A DNA stretch of 39,709 nt from Escherichia phage vB_EcoM_CQ615: the sequence record PQ010280.1. One strand, written 5' to 3'. Under the pieces are notes generated by a model, which saw only the letters and a program-made list of their open reading frames with translations, made no database searches and was not told where the DNA came from. Of this stretch, positions 3,550-10,097 are shown in pieces. Each line of letters opens with the position of its first letter. The stretch's first letter is position 1. A program made the translations under genes and the position numbers.

Positions 3550-6201
3550 ATGAGCACGATTAACATCGCTAAGAACGATTTCTCTGACATCGAACTGGCT
3601 GCTATCCCGTTCAACACTCTGGCTGACCACTATGGTGAGCGTCTAGCTCGCGAACAGTTGGCCCTTGAGCATGAGTCTTACGAGATGGGCGAGGCACGTT
3701 TCCGCAAGATGTTTGAGCGTCAACTCAAGGCCGGTGAGGTTGCAGACAATGCGGCTGCTAAGCCACTGATTACTACTCTACTGCCCAAGATGGTTACACG
3801 CATCAACGACTGGTTTGAGGAAGTGAAAGCTAAGCGTGGCAAACGTCCAACCGCTTTCCAGTTCCTGCAAGGAATCAAGCCGGAAGCCGTAGCGTATATC
3901 ACCATTAAGACTACTCTTGCTTGCCTAACGAGCGTAGACAATACAACCGTTCAGGCTGTAGCAAGCGCCATCGGACGGGCTATCGAGGAAGAGGCTCGCT
4001 TCGGTCGAATCCGTGACCTAGAAGCTAAGCACTTCAAGAAAAACGTTGAGGAACAACTAAACAAGCGCGTAGGGCACGTCTATAAGAAAGCATTCATGCA
4101 AGTAGTAGAGGCCGATATGCTCTCTAAGGGTCTACTCGGTGGCGAGGCGTGGTCTACATGGCACAAGGAAGATTCCATTCACGTAGGTGTGCGCTGCATT
4201 GAGATGCTCATTGAGTCCACCGGAATGGTTAGCTTGCACCGCCAAAATGCTGGCGTAGTGGGCCAAGACTCTGAGACTATCGAGCTGGCACACGAATACG
4301 CTGAGGCTATCGCAACACGGGCTGGGGCACTGGCGGGTATCTCTCCGATGTATCAGCCTTGCATAGTACCGCCTAAACCTTGGACCGGTGTAACTGGTGG
4401 TGGATACTGGGCCAACGGTCGCCGTCCACTGGTACTGGTGCGTACCCACAGCAAGAAGGCACTGATGCGCTACGAAGATGTTTACATGCCTGAGGTATAC
4501 AAGGCGATCAACATTGCGCAAAACACCGCTTGGAAAATCAACAAGAAAGTCCTAGCGGTCGCCAACGTAATCACCAAGTGGAAGCACTGCCCGGTCGAGG
4601 ACATCCCAGCGATTGAACGTGAAGAACTCCCGATGAAACCGGAAGACATCGACACGAATCCTGAGGCTCTCACTGCATGGAAACGTGCCGCTGCCGCTGT
4701 GTACCGTAAAGACAAGGCTCGCAAGTCTCGCCGCATAAGCCTTGAGTTCATGCTTGAGCAAGCCAATAAGTTCGCTAACCATAAGGCCATCTGGTTCCCT
4801 TACAACATGGACTGGCGCGGTCGTGTTTACGCTGTGTCAATGTTCAACCCGCAAGGTAACGACATGACCAAGGGACTGCTGACACTGGCTAAGGGTAAAC
4901 CAATCGGTAAAGAAGGTTACTACTGGCTGAAAATCCACGGTGCAAACTGTGCGGGTGTCGATAAGGTTCCGTTCCCTGAGCGCATCAAGTTCATTGAGGA
5001 CAACCACGAGAACATCATGGCTTGCGCTAAGTCTCCTCTGGAGAACACTTGGTGGGCTGAGCAAGATTCTCCGTTCTGCTTCCTTGCGTTCTGCTTTGAG
5101 TACGCTGGGGTACAACACCACGGCCTTAGCTACAACTGCTCTCTTCCGCTGGCGTTCGATGGGTCTTGCTCTGGTATTCAGCACTTCTCCGCGATGCTCC
5201 TTGATGAGATAGGTGGTCGTGCGGTTAACCTGCTGCCTAGTGAAACCGTTCAGGACATCTACGGGATTGTCGCTAAGAAAGTCAACGTGATTCTGCAAGA
5301 AGACGTAATCAACGGGACCGACAACGAAGTAGTTACCGTGACTGATGAGAACACTGGCGAAATCTCTGAGAAAGTTAAGCTGGGCACCAAGGCATTGGCT
5401 GGTCAGTGGTTGGCTTACGGTGTTACTCGCAGCGTGACTAAGCGTTCAGTCATGACGCTGGCTTACGGGTCCAAAGAGTTCGGCTTCCGTCAACAAGTGC
5501 TGGAAGATACCATTCAGCCAGCTATTGATTCCGGTAAAGGTCTGATGTTCACTCAACCGAATCAGGCCGCTGGATACATGGCGAAACTGATTTGGGAAGC
5601 TGTGAGCGTCACGGTGGTAGCTGCGGTTGAAGCAATGAACTGGCTTAAGTCTGCCGCTAAGCTGCTGGCTGCTGAGGTCAAAGATAAGAAGACTGGAGAG
5701 ATTCTTCGCAAGCGTTGCGCTGTGCATTGGGTAACTCCTGATGGGTTCCCAGTGTGGCAGGAATACAAGAAGCCAATTCAGACTCGCTTGAACCTGATGT
5801 TCCTCGGTCAGTTCCGCTTACAGCCGACCATTAACACCAACAAAGACAGCGAGATTGATGCACACAAACAGGAGTCCGGTATTGCTCCTAACTTTGTACA
5901 CAGCCAAGATGGTAGCCACCTGCGTAAGACTGTAGTGTGGGCGCATGAGAAGTACGGAATCGAATCATTTGCGTTGATTCACGACTCCTTCGGGACCATT
6001 CCGGCTGACGCTGCCAACCTGTTCAAAGCTGTTCGCGAAACTATGGTTGACACCTATGAGTCTTGCGATGTACTGGCTGACTTCTATGAGCAGTTCGCTG
6101 ACCAGTTACATGAGTCTCAATTGGATAAAATGCCAGCACTTCCGGCTAAAGGTAACTTGAATCTCCAAGACATCCTTAAGTCAGACTTCGCGTTCGCGTA
6201 A
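3550..6201 (+). CDS. 1: Single-subunit DNA-dependent RNA polymerase (gp1)
   Basis: 883 aa, near-identical to T7 RNAP including the specificity loop (QPTINTNKDSEIDAHKQESGIAPNFVHSQDGSH) and C-terminal FAFA; matches the T7-type promoters in the window. Confidence 0.98.
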   Translation: MSTINIAKNDFSDIELAAIPFNTLADHYGERLAREQLALEHESYEMGEARFRKMFERQLKAGEVADNAAAKPLITTLLPKMVTRINDWFEEVKAKRGKRPTAFQFLQGIKPEAVAYITIKTTLACLTSVDNTTVQAVASAIGRAIEEEARFGRIRDLEAKHFKKNVEEQLNKRVGHVYKKAFMQVVEADMLSKGLLGGEAWSTWHKEDSIHVGVRCIEMLIESTGMVSLHRQNAGVVGQDSETIELAHEYAEAIATRAGALAGISPMYQPCIVPPKPWTGVTGGGYWANGRRPLVLVRTHSKKALMRYEDVYMPEVYKAINIAQNTAWKINKKVLAVANVITKWKHCPVEDIPAIEREELPMKPEDIDTNPEALTAWKRAAAAVYRKDKARKSRRISLEFMLEQANKFANHKAIWFPYNMDWRGRVYAVSMFNPQGNDMTKGLLTLAKGKPIGKEGYYWLKIHGANCAGVDKVPFPERIKFIEDNHENIMACAKSPLENTWWAEQDSPFCFLAFCFEYAGVQHHGLSYNCSLPLAFDGSCSGIQHFSAMLLDEIGGRAVNLLPSETVQDIYGIVAKKVNVILQEDVINGTDNEVVTVTDENTGEISEKVKLGTKALAGQWLAYGVTRSVTKRSVMTLAYGSKEFGFRQQVLEDTIQPAIDSGKGLMFTQPNQAAGYMAKLIWEAVSVTVVAAVEAMNWLKSAAKLLAAEVKDKKTGEILRKRCAVHWVTPDGFPVWQEYKKPIQTRLNLMFLGQFRLQPTINTNKDSEIDAHKQESGIAPNFVHSQDGSHLRKTVVWAHEKYGIESFALIHDSFGTIPADAANLFKAVRETMVDTYESCDVLADFYEQFADQLHESQLDKMPALPAKGNLNLQDILKSDFAFA

Positions 6202-6209
6202 CGTCAAAT

Positions 6210-6232
6210 TAATACGACTCACTATAGAGGGG
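6210..6232 (+). promoter_or_regulatory. Phage RNAP promoter phi1.1A
   Basis: taatacgactcactatagagggg. Confidence 0.85.
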
Positions 6233-6236
6233 ACAA

Positions 6237-6276
6237 ACTCAAGGTCATTCGCAAGAGTGGCCTTTATGATTGACCT
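6237..6276 (+). promoter_or_regulatory. Putative RNase III site (R1.1-like)
   Basis: actcaaggtcattcgcaagagtggcctttatgattgacc. Confidence 0.5.
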
Positions 6277-6285
6277 TCTTCCGGT

Positions 6286-6308
6286 TAATACGACTCACTA
6301 TAGGAGAA
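6286..6308 (+). promoter_or_regulatory. Phage RNAP promoter phi1.1B
   Basis: taatacgactcactataggagaa. Confidence 0.85.
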
Positions 6309-6386
6309 CCTTAAGGTTTAACTTTAAGACCCTTAAGTGTTAATTAAAGATTTAAATTAAAGAATTACTAAGAGAGGACTTTAAGT
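6309..6386 (+). other. AT-rich region downstream of phi1.1A/B, candidate primary origin of replication
   Basis: Strongly AT-rich (ttaactttaagacccttaagtgttaattaaagatttaaattaaagaattactaag) just after the paired promoters, as at the T7 primary origin. Confidence 0.45.
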
Positions 6387-6515
6387 ATGCGTAACTTCGA
6401 AAAGATGACCAAACGTTCTACCCGTAATGCTCATGACTTCGAGGCAACTAAAGGTCGCAAGTTGAATAAGACTAAGCGTGACCGTTCCCATAAGCGTAGC
6501 TGGGAGGGTCAGTAA
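6387..6515 (+). CDS. 1.1: gp1.1-like small basic protein
   Basis: 42 aa, MRNFEKMTKRSTRNAHDFEATKGRKLNKTKRDRSHKRSWEGQ. Confidence 0.7.
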   Translation: MRNFEKMTKRSTRNAHDFEATKGRKLNKTKRDRSHKRSWEGQ

Positions 6516-6516
6516 G

Positions 6517-6774
6517 ATGGGACGTTTATACAGTGGGAACTTGAATGACTTCAAGGATGCTTGCAACAGGCTCTACCAGTTAGACTTTGCTGTTATTTGT
6601 GATGAATGGCATGATGCTTACAAACGCCTTGCGTGTATACGTCTACGCGTAGAGGACAGGGCTGGAAATCTGATTGATACCAATACGTTCTGTCACCACG
6701 ATGAAGACGTCTTGTACAATACGTGTACTGACTGGCTGAACCGTATGTACGACCAGTTGAAGGACTGGAAGTAA
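6517..6774 (+). CDS. 1.2: gp1.2, inhibitor of host dGTPase (Dgt)
   Basis: 85 aa from the internal ATG of track ORF 6478..6774; MGRLYSGNL...MYDQLKDWK conserved with T7 gp1.2. Confidence 0.85.
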   Translation: MGRLYSGNLNDFKDACNRLYQLDFAVICDEWHDAYKRLACIRLRVEDRAGNLIDTNTFCHHDEDVLYNTCTDWLNRMYDQLKDWK

Positions 6775-6794
6775 TACGACTCAGTATAGGGACA
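6772..6794 (+). promoter_or_regulatory. Phage RNAP promoter phi1.3
   Basis: taatacgactcagtatagggaca. Confidence 0.8.
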
Positions 6795-6797
6795 ATG

Positions 6798-6830
6798 CTT
6801 AAGGTCGCTCATTGAGTGGCCTTAGTCATT
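6798..6830 (+). promoter_or_regulatory. Putative RNase III site (R1.3-like)
   Basis: cttaaggtcgctcattgagtggccttagtcatt. Confidence 0.5.
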
Positions 6831-6852
6831 TAACCAATAGGAGATAAACATT

Positions 6853-7878
6853 ATGATGAACATTAAGACCAACCCATTCAAAGCCGTGTCTTTCATAGAG
6901 TCTGCCATTAAGAAAGCTCTGGATAACGCTGGGTATCTTATTGCTGACATTAAGTACGATGGTGTGCGTGGTAACATCTGCGTAGACAATACCGCTAACT
7001 GCTGCTGGCTCTCTCGTGTATCCAAACCGATTCCGGCACTGTCTTACCTTAATGGGTTCGACGCACGTTGGCAGCGTCTACTAAAGGATGACCGTTGCTT
7101 CTACCCTGATGGCTTCATGCTGGATTGCGAACTTATGGTCAAGGGAGTGGACTTCAACACTGGCTCCGGCCTTCTGCGGACCAAGTGGCTCAACAAGAAG
7201 AACATGCAGTTCGATATTGGAGGTCCGTATGAATCGTGGGACGTGAGCCTGAAGGGACTTCCTTTCGGTATTGACCCGAACTTACTAACAGTTAAACTCT
7301 ACGCTATCCTTCCGTACCACATTGTGGAATCTGGGGAAGACTGTGATGTCATGACGTTGCTCATGCAGGAACACGTTAAGAACATGCTGCCTCTGCTACA
7401 GGAATACTTTCCTGAAATCGAATGGCAAGCGGCTGAGTCTTACGAGGTTTACGACATGGTAGAACTACAGCAACTGTACGAGAAGAAGCGTGAAGAAGGG
7501 CATGAGGGTCTCATTGTGAAAGACCCGATGTGCATCTACAAGCGCGGTAAGAAGTCCGGCTGGTGGAAACTTAAGCCTCTTGAGGAAGCTGACGGTATCA
7601 TTCAAGGTGTAAACTGGGGAACCGAAGGGCTTGCTAACGAAGGTAAGGTAATTGGATTCAAGGTGCTTCTTGAGACTGGTCGTCTTGTGGATGCCAATAA
7701 CATCTCTCGCGCCTTAATGGATGAATTTACAGCTAACGTTAAAGAACATGGCGAGGACTATTATAATGGCTGGGCTTGCCAGATTGGATTTATGGAGGAA
7801 ACACCAGATGGCTCATTGCGTCACCCGTCCTTCACCTGCTTCCGAGGAACTGAGGACAATCCGAAAGAGAAAGTATAA
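6853..7878 (+). CDS. 1.3: ATP-dependent DNA ligase (gp1.3)
   Basis: 341 aa, MMNIKTNPFKAVSF..., adenylation motif KYDGVRG; T7 ligase-like but shorter (T7: 359 aa) with divergent internal patches. Confidence 0.93.
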   Translation: MMNIKTNPFKAVSFIESAIKKALDNAGYLIADIKYDGVRGNICVDNTANCCWLSRVSKPIPALSYLNGFDARWQRLLKDDRCFYPDGFMLDCELMVKGVDFNTGSGLLRTKWLNKKNMQFDIGGPYESWDVSLKGLPFGIDPNLLTVKLYAILPYHIVESGEDCDVMTLLMQEHVKNMLPLLQEYFPEIEWQAAESYEVYDMVELQQLYEKKREEGHEGLIVKDPMCIYKRGKKSGWWKLKPLEEADGIIQGVNWGTEGLANEGKVIGFKVLLETGRLVDANNISRALMDEFTANVKEHGEDYYNGWACQIGFMEETPDGSLRHPSFTCFRGTEDNPKEKV

Positions 7879-8278
7879 GTATAACCCTGCGGCTCCTTCG
7901 GGAGTCATTTCTGCCTCTGGTAAACCCATAGGGTACAAGCGGAAAGATGGGTATTGGGTTCTTTCTTATGGAGGAAAGCAGTTACTTGCACACAGGGTGG
8001 TCTGGATGCTTAACTTCGGTGCAATACCCGATGGAATGGTGATAGACCACATTAACAGAAACCCTAGCGACAACCGCATAGAGAATCTTCGAGTAGTAAC
8101 TCAATCAGCTAACCTAAGGAATGTAGGCGTCCGGTCTCACTGTAGGAGTGGAGAGAAGTTTATCTCCCTTGATGTGAGAACCGGACGTTTTTCCGTTCGT
8201 ATCAGGAGAAAATCCTATGGAACATATGGTACTCTCGAAGAGGCTATAGCTGTGCGCGATGCTAATACGACTCACTAA
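7808..8278 (+). CDS. HNH endonuclease with AP2-like DNA-binding tail (homing-endonuclease-like); start uncertain
   Basis: Open frame to TAA 8276-8278; HNH core GYWVLSYGGKQLLAHRVVWMLNFGAIPDGMVIDHINRNPSDNRIENLRVVTQSANLRN, then SVRIRRKSYGTYGTLEEAIAVRDAN; the only in-frame ATG before the HNH core with an SD (GGAGGA 7794-7799) is 7808, inside the ligase 3' end; no ATG/GTG/TTG lies between the ligase stop and the core. Confidence 0.55.
   Translation: MAHCVTRPSPASEELRTIRKRKYKYNPAAPSGVISASGKPIGYKRKDGYWVLSYGGKQLLAHRVVWMLNFGAIPDGMVIDHINRNPSDNRIENLRVVTQSANLRNVGVRSHCRSGEKFISLDVRTGRFSVRIRRKSYGTYGTLEEAIAVRDANTTH
7888..7912 (+). terminator. Weak hairpin after the ligase gene (possible early terminator TE analogue)
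   Basis: ggctcc-ttcg-ggagtc: 6-bp stem with one G-U pair and a UUCG tetraloop, followed by auuucu; position matches where T7 places TE. Confidence 0.3.
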
Positions 8279-8286
8279 AGGAGGTA
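8264..8286 (+). promoter_or_regulatory. Phage RNAP promoter phi1.5
   Basis: taatacgactcactaaaggaggt; overlaps the last codons and stop of the upstream HNH ORF. Confidence 0.8.
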
Positions 8287-8292
8287 CACATC

Positions 8293-8382
8293 ATGATGTA
8301 CTTAATGCCATTACTCATTGTCATCATAGGATGCCTTGCGCTCCACTGTAGCGATGACGATATGCCAGATGGTCATGCTTAA
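8293..8382 (+). CDS. 1.5: gp1.5-like small protein
   Basis: 29 aa, MMYLMPLLIVIIGCLALHCSDDDMPDGHA; stop overlaps phi1.6. Confidence 0.6.
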   Translation: MMYLMPLLIVIIGCLALHCSDDDMPDGHA

Positions 8383-8402
8383 TACGACTCACTAAAGGAG
8401 AC
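8380..8402 (+). promoter_or_regulatory. Phage RNAP promoter phi1.6
   Basis: taatacgactcactaaaggagac. Confidence 0.8.
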
Positions 8403-8407
8403 ACTAT

Positions 8408-8668
8408 ATGTTTCGACTTCATTACAACAAAAGCATTAAGAATTTCACGGTTCGCCGTGCTGACCGTTCAATCGTATGTGCGAGCGAGCGCCGAGCTAAG
8501 TTACCTCTTATTGGTAACACAGTTCCTTTGGCACCGAGCGTCCACATCATTATCACCCGTGGTGACTTTGAGAAAGCAGTAGATAAGAAACGTCCGGTTC
8601 TTAGCGTGGCAGTGACCCGCTTCCCGTTCGTCCGTCTGTTACTCAAACGTATCAAGGAGGTGTTCTAA
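8408..8668 (+). CDS. 1.6: gp1.6-like protein
   Basis: 86 aa, [23 protein letters not shown]...; SD aaaggagac upstream. Confidence 0.8.
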
Positions 8669-8995
8669 TGACTATTAACCATAAAGAATATTGTCGCTCC
8701 GTACTTAGCTTTGGGTCGTGCGATTGTGGTGCCACTACGAACCACGTGTCCAACAAACAACAAGACGTAGACGGTGTTCGTACTCCGAGCCATTACATGC
8801 TGTTTGACGACATTGAGGCTATTGAAGTGATTGCCCGTTCGATGACCAGTGAGCAGTTCAAAGGGTACTGCTTCGGGAACGTACTTAAATATCGCCTACG
8901 TGCTGGTAAGAAATCCGAACTGGCTTACTTAGAGAAGGACATGGCGAAAGCTGAGTTCTACGGTGAACTGTACGAGAAACATAAGGATAAGTGCT

Positions 8996-9009
<14 letters not shown>
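8668..9009 (+). CDS. 1.7: gp1.7-like protein (nucleotide kinase family in T7), short form
   Basis: 113 aa; C-terminal about 70 aa (TPSHYMLFDDIEAIEVIARSMT...KYRLRAGKKSELAYLEKD...KHKDKCY) match the T7 gp1.7 C-terminus; N-terminal 45 aa differ; T7 gp1.7 is 196 aa. Confidence 0.75.
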
Positions 9010-9329
<320 letters not shown>

Positions 9330-9332
<3 letters not shown>

Positions 9333-9352
9333 TACGACTCACTATTGGGGGA
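9330..9352 (+). promoter_or_regulatory. Phage RNAP promoter phi2.5
   Basis: taatacgactcactattggggga; variant initiating region. Confidence 0.75.
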
Positions 9353-9398
9353 AGACTCCCTCTGAGAAACTAAACGAAACCTAAAGGAGATTAACATT

Positions 9399-10097
9399 AT
9401 GGCTAAGAAGATTTTCACCTCTGCGCTGGGTACTGCTGAACCTTACGCTTACATCTCTAAGCCGGACTACGGCAACGAAGAGCGTGGCTTTGGGAACCCT
9501 CGCGGTGTCTACAAAGTTGACCTGACTATTCCCAACAAAGACCCGCGCTGCCAACGTATGGTCGATGAAATCGTGAAGTGCCACGAAGAGGCTTATGCTG
9601 CTGCCGTTGAGGAATACGAAGCGAACCCGCCTTCTGTAGCTCGTGGTAAGAAACCACTGAAACCGTATGAAGGCGACATGCCGTTCTTCGATAACGGTGA
9701 CGGTACGACTACCTTTAAGTTCAAATGCTACGCGTCTTTCCAAGACAAGAAGACCAAAGAGACCAAGCACATTAATCTGGTTGTGGTTGACTCCAAAGGT
9801 AAGAAGATGGAAGACGTTCCGATTATCGGTGGTGGCTCTAAACTGAAAGTAAAATACTCGCTGGTTCCGTACAAGTGGAACACCGCTGTAGGCGCGAGCG
9901 TTAAGCTACAACTGGAATCCGTAATGCTGGTCGAACTGGCTACCTTTGGTGGCGGTGAAGATGATTGGGCTGACGAAGTTGAAGAGAACGGCTATGTTGC
10001 CTCTGGTTCTGCCAAAGCGAGCAAACCACGCGACGAAGAAAGCTGGGACGAAGACGACGAAGAGTCCGAGGAAGTAGACGAAGACGGAGACTTCTAA
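9399..10097 (+). CDS. 2.5: Single-stranded DNA-binding protein (gp2.5)
   Basis: 232 aa, MAKKIFTSALGTAEPYAYISKPDYG..., acidic C-terminal tail ending DEDGDF. Confidence 0.95.
   Translation: MAKKIFTSALGTAEPYAYISKPDYGNEERGFGNPRGVYKVDLTIPNKDPRCQRMVDEIVKCHEEAYAAAVEEYEANPPSVARGKKPLKPYEGDMPFFDNGDGTTTFKFKCYASFQDKKTKETKHINLVVVDSKGKKMEDVPIIGGGSKLKVKYSLVPYKWNTAVGASVKLQLESVMLVELATFGGGEDDWADEVEENGYVASGSAKASKPRDEESWDEDDEESEEVDEDGDF

Follow-up and report, generated by a model that had tools for sequence, protein, structure and literature searches.

A probable homing-endonuclease gene of the gene 1.45 type between the DNA ligase gene and promoter phi1.5 of Escherichia phage vB_EcoM_CQ615

The free-standing endonuclease genes of phage T4 (mobE, segF, segC, mobA, mobC and segG) are cassettes that carry no promoter of their own and share 11-24 bp with the ORF in front of them (PMC2988022). 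Intrinsic terminators lie at the 5' end of the mobE and segF coding sequences, promoters of downstream genes are embedded in the endonuclease ORF of segG and others, and the mobility of these genes is accompanied by co-conversion of their flanks (PMC2988022). A closer counterpart of the locus described here is gene 1.45 of Yersinia phage phiYeO3-12 (NC_001271; NP_052076). Its annotated CDS begins 71 nt inside the ligase gene 1.3, a putative early terminator (TE) lies within it, and phi1.5 lies over its 3' end.

We analyzed a 39,709-nucleotide stretch of Escherichia phage vB_EcoM_CQ615 (PQ010280.1), referred to below as the window, in which an ORF has the arrangement of gene 1.45. Judged by sequence comparison, this ORF is an intact, orthologous copy of gene 1.45, and the arrangement is already known. 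It lies between ligase gene 1.3 and phi1.5, and we consider it likely to be a functional HNH homing-endonuclease gene of the free-standing kind. The features of the locus are as follows.

6853..7878, + strand: DNA ligase gene (T7 gene 1.3 equivalent), 341 aa; from the ORF list and Pfam
7527..8262, no strand: apparent gene-conversion patch covering the 3' third of the ligase gene and the endonuclease gene; from the window compared with contig L087
7794..7799, + strand: Shine-Dalgarno-like GGAGGA, made by the ligase codons Met-Glu-Glu; from the sequence
7808..8278, + strand: ORF of 156 codons and a stop, read in the +1 frame relative to the ligase; probable HNH homing endonuclease of the gene 1.45 type
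7808..7878, + strand: ligase/endonuclease overlap of 71 nt, endonuclease residues 1-23; from AlphaFold2 and the sequence
7891..7906, + strand: hairpin GGCUCC-UUCG-GGAGUC, followed by the tail AUUUCUGCC (7907-7915); from alignment with the T7/13a TE
7985..8119, + strand: HNH_3 catalytic domain (AHR...IDHINRNPSDNRIENLR...N..N); from Pfam PF13392
8162..8269, + strand: predicted AP2-like C-terminal DNA-binding module, residues 119-154; from AlphaFold2 and the family profile
8263..8285, + strand: phage-RNAP promoter phi1.5 (TAATACGACTCACTAAAGGAGGT); from pattern search and T7/13a alignment

The endonuclease ORF and its product

The upstream ORF matched both ligase Pfam domains, DNA_ligase_A_M (E = 5.5e-31) and DNA_ligase_C (E = 1.9e-38). 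The +1 frame that carries the endonuclease ORF is open from the TAA at 7715-7717 onward. The encoded protein is 82.2% identical to phiYeO3-12 gp1.45 over residues 1-152 and 95% identical to the homologue of JeanTinguely. Annotated orthologues include those of KP32, CLB_P1, JeanTinguely (Bas64) and MeretOppenheim (Bas102), and the last two are annotated with the same start. Homologues were found in 94 phage records. The match covers 80% or more of the protein in 89 of these, and almost all of the 60 homologues among the matches listed overlap an annotated ligase. Some 90 other records from the Autographiviridae share the arrangement. Public records disagree on its extent: some start it 68 nt before the ligase stop (-68), some use internal ATGs that give truncated products of 64-126 aa, and others miss the gene. 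Our literature search, which covered papers other than the phiYeO3-12 genome paper, returned nothing on gp1.45 or gene 1.45; the phage-genome papers in it mention HNH genes merely as present or absent.

The first-pass annotation of this DNA, made from the letters alone, had described an HNH core with an AP2-like tail, and domain, profile and structure searches agree with this description. Pfam HNH_3 (PF13392) matched residues 89-133 of a 185-aa ORF (E = 1.6e-20, 72.9 bits against a cut-off of 24.8), and PHROG_99, 'HNH endonuclease', matched with E = 2e-42. Across a 68-sequence alignment, D80, H81, N93, L94, R95 and N105 are invariant and H62 of the AHR motif is near-invariant. The AlphaFold2 model has a pLDDT of 89.7, and its top Foldseek match is I-HmuI (1u3e; E = 1e-4, probability 1.00, 36% identity over 90 columns), a structure that the family profile also matched (E = 9.8e-12). 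In the tail, AlphaFold2 predicts strands at residues 119-122, 127-132 and 135-140, then a helix at 143-154. The family profile matches the AP2/ERF structures WRI1 (9.3e-9), TEM1 (3.3e-6) and ERF096 (4.2e-4), and PF00847 is present in the precomputed domains of many homologues. Pfam AP2 itself matched neither the full protein at E <= 0.1 nor the tail alone at E <= 10. We therefore use the label 'AP2-like' on the basis of the profile matches, the PF00847 of the homologues and the predicted three-strand-plus-helix fold.

The other end of the gene had been read as formed by the promoter, and the sequence and our pattern search bear this out. The final codons are gct aat acg act cac taa, with the stop at 8276-8278, and phi1.5 supplies the last four codons (N-T-T-H) as well as the TAA. 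There is an exact T7-type promoter match at 8263-8281; the window contains 17 such matches, against 0.02 expected by chance.

We also considered where the native protein begins. A profile of distant homologues aligns with residues 36-153 only, and the 13a/T7 DNA alignment had suggested that the protein is native from about residue 36, with the DNA upstream of about 7920 being foreign. This reading is contradicted by PHROG_99 and by paralogues at other genome positions, which align from residue 22-23, and it goes against the confident AlphaFold2 helix at residues 10-21. A free-standing paralogue in CR44b reads MLSDYYKVDQASPSGLV... and starts merely 6 residues before the YK.D motif. Because this paralogue carries it, the YK.D..APSG segment is native to the protein. 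Within the overlap, residues 1-5 are disordered in the model, helix 10-21 follows, and residues 2-8 vary freely between relatives and follow the ligase sequence.

The hairpin at the early-terminator position

The hairpin at 7891-7906 has a 6-bp stem, a UUCG loop and a folding energy of -9.6 kcal/mol, and it is translated as Ala-Pro-Ser-Gly-Val. It had been noted to lie where T7 places its early terminator. Alignment with T7 and 13a supports this placement, since the hairpin has the position of their TE and resembles it in sequence, including the TTTCTGC tail; the annotation of a putative TE inside phiYeO3-12 gene 1.45 is consistent with it. Taken alone, the window hairpin does not exceed shuffled sequence in stability (z = -0.37, with 63 of 200 shuffles folding equally well), and it is the weakest copy among those compared. 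Its significance comes from its conservation in relatives. The hairpin is conserved with compensatory changes across 20 loci, four pairs being altered on both sides, and 86% of alignment cells are paired, compared with 78% in shuffles (0/500) and 34-49% when the alignment is slid. The CR44b paralogue, which lies elsewhere in its genome, has the same A-S-P-S-G motif and no hairpin. A consensus terminator scan of the + strand from 6000 to 9500 made no call; the U-tract of the window hairpin is poor. The T7 TE would probably be missed by the same scan too, its tail having by count only 4 T in the 8 nt that the scan considers. An Rfam scan of 7600-8450 gave matches at chance level only.

It is possible, though we find it rather doubtful, that the conserved hairpin is not an early terminator and acts on the endonuclease gene or the ligase message otherwise, for example by stabilizing the 3' end of processed ligase mRNA, by causing pausing or processing, or as a signal at the level of DNA. 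The weakness of the window copy and its lack of a good U-tract fit such roles. P483- and JacobBurckhardt-type genes likewise have a strong hairpin with no U-tract, and four phages (JacobBurckhardt, PVN09, pO111 and Rambo) have a separate T7-type TE downstream of the endonuclease gene, so the hairpin may not be a terminator in all lineages. However, it has the position of the T7/13a TE and resembles it in sequence, and the copies in NC-A and pEp_SNUABM_11 are textbook terminators with a 9-bp stem and a T-rich tail (TTTTTGCGTTT in NC-A; TTTTCGCGTT in pEp_SNUABM_11). In phages of the window type there is no other TE candidate between the ligase gene and phi1.5, and natural deletion remnants of the endonuclease gene keep exactly the hairpin and the promoter.

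The first-pass annotation had further proposed that the hairpin, as a structured 5' region, restrains translation. Our results do not support this role: the hairpin lies 83 nt past the start and leaves the Shine-Dalgarno sequence and the ATG untouched. Nor is the Shine-Dalgarno region unusually structured, as folding of 7765-7850 (z = +0.9 against shuffles) revealed no structure hiding the Shine-Dalgarno sequence or ATG of the kind found at T4 I-TevI or Aeh1 mobE.

How a terminator and a promoter came to lie within a coding sequence is a separate matter. One reading, which we regard as unlikely, is that the endonuclease gene absorbed TE, now in the codons of the conserved Ala-Pro-Ser-Gly turn, together with phi1.5. 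In a stronger version, the intergenic TE of T7 and 13a may itself be what is left of the 5' end of a gene resembling 1.45; the +1 frame of 13a still reads ...KRKCNHTGSPSGG..., and its gp1.45 counterpart reads ...KRKYKYNPAAPSGV.... If the elements were indeed absorbed, expression would be timed by the change from host to phage RNAP, and clean deletion of the gene would be costly.

The start codon inside the ligase gene

As the first-pass annotation had stated, no start codon lies in frame between the ligase stop and the HNH core; after the ATG at 7808, the endonuclease frame of the window contains no ATG, GTG or TTG until the GTG at 7997. It had also correctly placed a GGAGGA at 7794-7799, 8 nt before this ATG. 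Its further claim that 7808 is the only plausible initiator holds in part. Other in-frame starts exist upstream in the window (ATG at 7721, 7748 and 7766; TTG at 7784), and ATG 7808 is singled out from them because it is conserved. Both the Shine-Dalgarno sequence and the ATG arise incidentally from codons conserved in the ligase (M-E-E...D-G), and GGAGG is found in nearly all ligase genes, whether the HNH gene is present or absent. Because the ligase codons supply both elements, and about half of HNH-less phages have the ATG, their presence in any one genome proves nothing.

A comparison of where homologues begin had been proposed, and we made it across 23 homologue-bearing loci, which come from six genera, span 40-100% protein identity and have an open +1 frame in every case. 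In all 23, a start codon stands precisely 68 nt ahead of the stop codon of the ligase; it is ATG in 20 and GTG in three. The three GTG codons arise because the ligase codon there is AGT (Ser) and not GAT (Asp). At the same position, the 72 distinct 3' ends of HNH-less ligases have ATG in 34 and ACG in 38. The +1 frame is open in 60 of these 72, and a start and an open frame occur together in 28 (Fisher p = 5e-8, a test that ignores phylogeny, there being about 13 independent lineages). The third base of the ligase codon at -68 has an entropy of 0 in HNH-bearing loci and 1.0 in HNH-less loci, compared with 1.5-1.8 bits, near saturation, at neighboring third positions in the HNH-bearing loci. 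We looked for a dual-coding signature over the entire overlap as well. Synonymous variability of the ligase drops slightly there, to 0.98 from 1.22 bits in HNH-bearing loci and to 1.13 from 1.27 in HNH-less loci; this trend is weak, and clear constraint is confined to the start-codon position. As far as the comparative evidence goes, the ATG at 7808 inside the ligase gene is the real initiator.

Initiation elsewhere seems improbable to us. The candidates are ATG 8006, which would give 90 aa, the upstream ATGs at 7721, 7748 and 7766, and the near-cognate codons CTG 7850, ATC 7859 and ATT 7907. The upstream ATGs are in frame in the window, one public cluster representative has 170 aa, the length expected from the ATG at 7766 (inferred from length), and several others have 90 aa. 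The short N-terminus of the CR44b paralogue also implies that fewer N-terminal residues may suffice. However, a stop at -77..-75 severs the upstream ATGs in at least five orthologues, so that every upstream start is ruled out in several homologue-bearing loci. The downstream starts occur sporadically and none of the near-cognate codons is conserved, while a protein begun at 8006 would lose the near-invariant H62 of the AHR motif along with strands 50-60.

If the ORF were instead a decaying pseudogene that had lost its own start and was open into the ligase gene by chance, the lack of a start codon from the ligase stop to the HNH core would be accounted for. The frame is open anyway in most HNH-less phages, annotators differ on the start or miss the gene, and real remnants do exist. 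Nevertheless, we judge this explanation, which the first-pass annotation had offered in calling the gene a possible decaying remnant, to be very improbable. Outside the ligase overlap, dN/dS is 0.07-0.2, the catalytic residues are all intact and the predicted fold is confident. The start at -68 is kept in every one of the 23 loci, switches from ATG to GTG included. Genuine remnants look different: in L091, L101 and L107 the core is deleted or interrupted by in-frame stops. By these comparative measures, the endonuclease gene is intact and under purifying selection.

A ligase-HNH fusion made by programmed +1 ribosomal frameshifting in the ligase 3' end would fit the constant +1 frame of the HNH gene in every locus and the lack of a start past the ligase stop, but it is the reading to which we give least credence, since no prfB-type shift site is seen by eye in 7808-7878 or at the ligase stop, the kept ATG or GTG at -68 is explained by initiation and not by frameshifting, and the sequence right after -68 is highly variable.

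Mobility, expression and likeness to known systems

The slot between ligase and phi1.5 is occupied in some phages and empty in others. In 13a, T7 and L087 this slot lacks the HNH gene, which is present in only 4 of 80 IMG/VR ligase loci. Compared with L087, the window has one mismatch in 6916-7526 and 79 mismatches in 7501-7878; the HNH gene follows, absent from L087, and identity resumes at 8263. Thus a patch of about 735 bp at 7527-8262, of JeanTinguely-like origin, sits in a backbone near-identical to this HNH-less contig. On this comparison, the patch is the footprint of homing with co-conversion. The polymorphism in presence and absence, together with the conversion patch, upholds the earlier description of the ORF as a homing-endonuclease gene.

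We propose the following course of expression and spread. Initiation at ATG 7808 would take place on ligase mRNA and would probably be inefficient, because ribosomes translating the ligase run across the site. Early host-RNAP transcripts would tend to end at the TE hairpin, and full-length 1.45 mRNA would come mainly from phage-RNAP read-through transcripts (phi1.1A/B and phi1.3). As a result, endonuclease synthesis would be delayed and limited. Restrained or delayed expression of this kind is plausible by analogy with the free-standing endonuclease genes of T4 (PMC2988022). The enzyme may then cut HNH-less genomes in or near the ligase 3' region, and repair off a co-infecting HNH-bearing genome would copy the gene and the ligase 3' end together.

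The value of these results lies mainly in annotation and method; GenBank already contains the gene, unusual start included, as gene 1.45 of phiYeO3-12. The comparative test, with its conserved position and its ATG-to-GTG switches, argues that the -68 start is right for the entire orthologue group. For the engineering of T7-like phages, the ligase/phi1.5 slot should be regarded as a recombination hot spot, and a mobile endonuclease in this position may bring about conversion of co-infecting genomes through the 3' end of the ligase gene.

The closest known system is gene 1.45 of phiYeO3-12, with which the window ORF shares the slot between ligase 1.3 and phi1.5, the +1-frame start 71 nt inside the ligase gene, the TE hairpin within the ORF and the stop within the promoter CACTAA. 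The 3' promoter is of the T7 type in the window (TAATACGACTCAC) and of the T3 type in phiYeO3-12 (ATTAACCCTCAC), and because of this difference the last residues are NTTH in the former and AINPH in the latter. Relative to gene 1.45 orthologues, the window hairpin has a G-to-A change at 7907, which leaves a stem of 6 bp in place of 8. The T7 TE, which follows gene 1.3 at nt 7588 of T7, likewise lies just past the ligase stop and has a cUUCGg-capped GC stem and the TTTCTGC tail. In T7 and 13a, however, it is intergenic and has an 8-bp stem of -15.4 kcal/mol, whereas the window hairpin is translated, shorter and less stable, with a weaker distal U-tract.

At the protein level, gp1.45 shares N-terminal strands and the HNH motif with I-HmuI (PDB 1U3E) of the Bacillus phage SPO1. 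Unlike gp1.45, I-HmuI is encoded in an intron, and its DNA-binding modules at the C-terminus are helical, in place of the AP2-like sheet-helix. I-HmuI nicks one strand. The HNH-AP2 endonucleases of phages and bacteria (PF13392 plus PF00847) share with the window protein an HNH_3 domain followed by a three-strand-plus-helix module; the window tail differs in falling below Pfam AP2 detection and in having its C-terminal helix shortened where the promoter begins.

The likeness to the free-standing endonuclease genes of T4 is one of organization. Compared with T4, the overlap in the window is longer (71 nt), and its Shine-Dalgarno sequence and ATG are ligase codons and not a termination-reinitiation arrangement. 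The switch from host to phage RNAP replaces the early, middle and late promoter logic of T4, and the window protein belongs to another family than the T4 endonucleases, with an AP2-like tail. T7-group phages have nevertheless arrived at the same three-part organization as the free-standing endonuclease genes of T4.

An intact HNH gene overlapping the ligase gene

The window genome is T7-like, with 17 matches to the T7-type promoter in a pattern search against 0.02 expected by chance. The features at the 3' end of its ligase gene are as follows.

6853-7878, + strand: gene for the DNA ligase, equivalent to T7 gene 1.3, from the ORF list
7794-7799, + strand: GGAGGA (SD), 8 nt ahead of ATG 7808
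7891-7906, + strand: hairpin with a 6-bp stem and a UUCG cap, from folding

The endonuclease frame is +1 relative to the ligase, opens after TAA 7715-7717 and closes with TAA 8276-8278. Between ATG 7808 and GTG 7997, the latter already past the conserved AHR-motif His, the frame contains no ATG, GTG or TTG. The SD and ATG 7808 both arise as by-products of ligase codons. The ORF matches Pfam HNH_3 (E 1.6e-20). An exact phi1.5-type promoter, whose first base is 8263, runs over its 3' codons (gct aat acg act cac taa). The first-pass annotation had described this arrangement accurately: start gap, SD, HNH core, promoter overlap and hairpin were all found. Its overall interpretation, a homing-endonuclease gene under restraint or a decaying remnant, is partly supported.

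The feature is already known as gene 1.45 of Yersinia phage phiYeO3-12 (NC_001271), with about 90 annotated orthologues. Megablast against phage records places the same block in many Autographiviridae. In phiYeO3-12 the block is annotated as gene 1.45, 'HNH endonuclease', with a CDS that starts 71 nt within gene 1.3, a 'putative early transcriptional terminator TE' inside it and 'promoter phi1.5' over its 3' end. The overlapping start is annotated likewise in the BASEL phages Bas102 (MeretOppenheim) and Bas64 (JeanTinguely). By tblastn, homologues occur in 94 phage records, and in 89 of these the match covers at least 80% of the protein; in nearly all of the 60 records listed the homologue overlaps a DNA ligase annotation. 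The genera represented are Teetrevirus, Teseptimavirus, Przondovirus, Kayfunavirus, Berlinvirus and Elunavirus.

We rejected the proposal that the window ORF is a decaying remnant. Over the non-overlapping part, dN/dS against six relatives is 0.07-0.2; a 68-sequence alignment shows no variation at D80, H81, N93, L94, R95 or N105; the AlphaFold2 model is confident (mean pLDDT 89.7); and true remnants look different. In structure the protein comes closest to I-HmuI, an HNH homing endonuclease (Foldseek E 1e-4; profile E 1e-11); together with the HNH_3 match, this bears out the HNH half of the 'HNH+AP2-like' description. The AP2-like half stands at the family level: the C-terminal tail is a module of three strands and a helix, and the family profile finds AP2/ERF domains of solved structure (WRI1 9e-9, TEM1 3e-6), but the tail alone gives no match to Pfam AP2. 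At ~0-110 nt past the ligase stop, two KP32-like IMG/VR contigs (L101, L107) carry natural remnants of the gene: the HNH core (~300 bp) is gone, and the 5' hairpin, with its T-tract, and the promoter-bearing 3' end persist. A third locus, L091, carries a scrambled remnant at ~0-170 nt past the ligase stop, with many in-frame stops and a duplicated ligase end.

The start codon at 7808

ATG 7808 had been called the only plausible initiator. Three further ATGs (7721, 7748, 7766) and TTG 7784 lie upstream in frame, so that wording was too strong, but the choice of codon is upheld by comparison of 23 homologue-bearing loci (40-100% protein identity). In all 23 the endonuclease is read in an open frame, +1 relative to the ligase, and a start codon stands exactly 68 nt ahead of the ligase stop (-68). 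This codon is ATG in 20 and GTG in three (pO111, CHRF_30111, PH1061), the latter being the loci with ligase codon AGT (Ser) in place of GAT/AAT. A stop at -77..-75 removes all upstream starts in at least 5 of the 23, and starts downstream of -68 are sporadic. We looked for RNA structure sequestering the SD of ATG 7808 and found none.

The comparison set, 72 distinct IMG/VR ligase 3' ends without the HNH gene, has ATG at position -68 in 34 cases and ACG in 38. Start and open frame occur together in only 28 of the 72 (Fisher p = 5e-8, with phylogeny ignored and ~13 independent lineages). The third base of the -68 ligase codon is fixed in HNH-bearing loci (entropy zero) and has 1.0 bit in HNH-less loci, while neighbouring third positions in the HNH-bearing loci approach saturation (1.5-1.8 bits). 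The pattern is therefore not explained by hitch-hiking on a recent transfer.

Residues directly after the start differ freely and track the ligase sequence (MAHCVTRP, METLDIRP, MVHCGIPH and others). In the AlphaFold2 model residues 1-5 are disordered; residues 10-21, still in the overlap, form a confident helix that agrees with the family's typical N-terminal helix. Annotation is inconsistent among ten GenBank records (L004, L167, L169, L172-L174, L176-L179). Internal starts are called in Yep15, CLB_P1, P483, Rambo, PE3-1, CHRF_30111 and KKP 3708, PH1061 is also among the ten, and the gene is not called at all in pO111 and pEp_SNUABM_11. The internal-start products (64-126 aa) lack conserved N-terminal parts of the fold and, in most cases, the AHR motif.

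The embedded hairpin and promoter

In phage 13a and in L087, an HNH-less IMG/VR contig (IMGVR_UViG_2974599467_000001), TE (GGCTCACCTTCGGGTGGGCC TTTCTGCGTT) follows the ligase stop and directly adjoins phi1.5; in T7, gene 1.4 lies between TE and phi1.5. The TE position is occupied in the window by GGCTCCTTCGGGAGTC ATTTCTGCC, which has its loop and TTTCTGC tail in common with the TE of 13a and T7, in agreement with the first-pass placement of the hairpin. Shuffled sequence folds as well as the window hairpin taken by itself (z -0.37). The Ala-Pro-Ser-Gly codons retain a hairpin, with differing stems, throughout a comparison of 20 homologue-bearing loci.

GGCTCC/GGAGTC: window type
CCAGTCC/GGGCTGG, with a T-rich tail: NC-A, L1, pEp_SNUABM_11
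GGAGGC/GCCTCT, with Ser as AGT/AGC: P483, JacobBurckhardt

Codon-anchored alignment gives 86% paired cells, versus 78% when shuffled (0/500) and 34-49% with the partner slid, and four hairpin pairs show both-sided changes. A paralogue in Citrobacter phage CR44b encodes the A-S-P-S-G motif without a comparable hairpin, indicating that the hairpin is superimposed on native coding sequence. The window copy is the weakest of its type, at -9.6 kcal/mol (Bas102, -13; T7 TE, -15.4). Position 7907 is A in the window and G in JeanTinguely, MeretOppenheim, Yep15, KKP 3708, phiYeO3-12, KP32 and Ebrios; with A the residue is Ile instead of Val, and the stem has 6 bp instead of 8.

We infer a TE role for the window hairpin from where it lies, what it resembles and how phiYeO3-12 is annotated. 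This role is weakened by some lineages in which a T7-type TE follows the gene and the internal hairpin lacks a U-tract. JacobBurckhardt (L170), PVN09 (L171), Rambo (L172) and pO111 (L173), which carry a more distant gene type (~40-58% identity), have TAACCACACTGGCTCACCTTCGGGT... directly after the endonuclease stop. This is the stop-plus-TE context found after the ligase in 13a, so these phages have a separate T7-type TE in addition to the internal hairpin. Among the HNH-less ligase loci, 13a (L005, 809-919) has a +1 frame that begins at its counterpart of ATG 7808 and runs open across TE as far as the phi1.5 TAA. The 36-aa product in 13a, METLDTHPSPASVAPRTTLKRKCNHTGSPSGGPFCV, resembles the gp1.45 N-terminus (KRK..., PSG) and could be a relic or chance.

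The claim that phi1.5 itself forms the last codons and stop held, with the overlap beginning at 8263. Comparing L001, L010, L168, L175 and L179 with window 8258-8278, we found that the ORF ends inside phi1.5 in at least five promoter-specificity groups (T7-, T3-, KP32-, L1- and pEp-type), the local promoter setting the final residues (NTTH, AINPH, VIN, LIKTH, AIRTH).

Mobility, proposed working and comparison with T4

The window differs from L087 by one mismatch over 6916-7526 and by 79 over 7501-7878; the endonuclease gene is absent from L087, and near identity resumes at 8263, the first base of phi1.5. Per 50-nt bin, 7527-8262 is about 96-100% identical to JeanTinguely. As read from these alignments, the patch is the footprint expected of homing in which the 3' third of the ligase gene was co-converted, and it would suggest a cleavage site in or near that third. 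The window is mosaic relative to L087, with other divergent blocks from around 8675 and 9000. The CR44b paralogue (L180, 386-823; also L181) lies between genes 18.5 and 19, a different genome position, indicating that the HNH family entered at least two slots in Studiervirinae. It is 42% identical, matches from residue 23, and has its own TAAGGAGG SD and a GTG start six residues ahead of the YKVD..SPSG motif.

The locus holds an intact, selected HNH/AP2-like gene with a conserved internal start and SD, an embedded hairpin and promoter, and a conversion patch. Initiation at 7808 would take place on ligase mRNA, probably held low by ribosomes translating the ligase. Early host-RNAP transcripts would tend to stop at the hairpin, and phage-RNAP transcripts would then supply the full-length message, making expression delayed and limited. 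The predicted endonuclease would cut HNH-less genomes, and repair would copy the cassette. That the gene has captured the phage early terminator and a promoter, or even that T7 TE descends from such a gene, seems unlikely to us. Modest but new are the comparative argument fixing the start codon for the whole orthologue group, support from covariation for a terminator-like hairpin that is translated, and a clean conversion patch in the window genome.

Free-standing endonuclease genes of T4 overlap the upstream ORF (segC by 20 bp, segF 11, mobA 23, mobC 24), and several, including segG, contain promoters for downstream genes (PMC2988022). With the terminators in the 5' coding ends of mobE and segF, these make three features, all of which a review of T4 mobile elements reads as down-regulation and as favouring retention (PMC2988022). 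The window, a T7-type genome, shows counterparts of all three, the terminator being a putative one, with a longer overlap and with a polymerase switch proposed in place of the T4 promoter classes.
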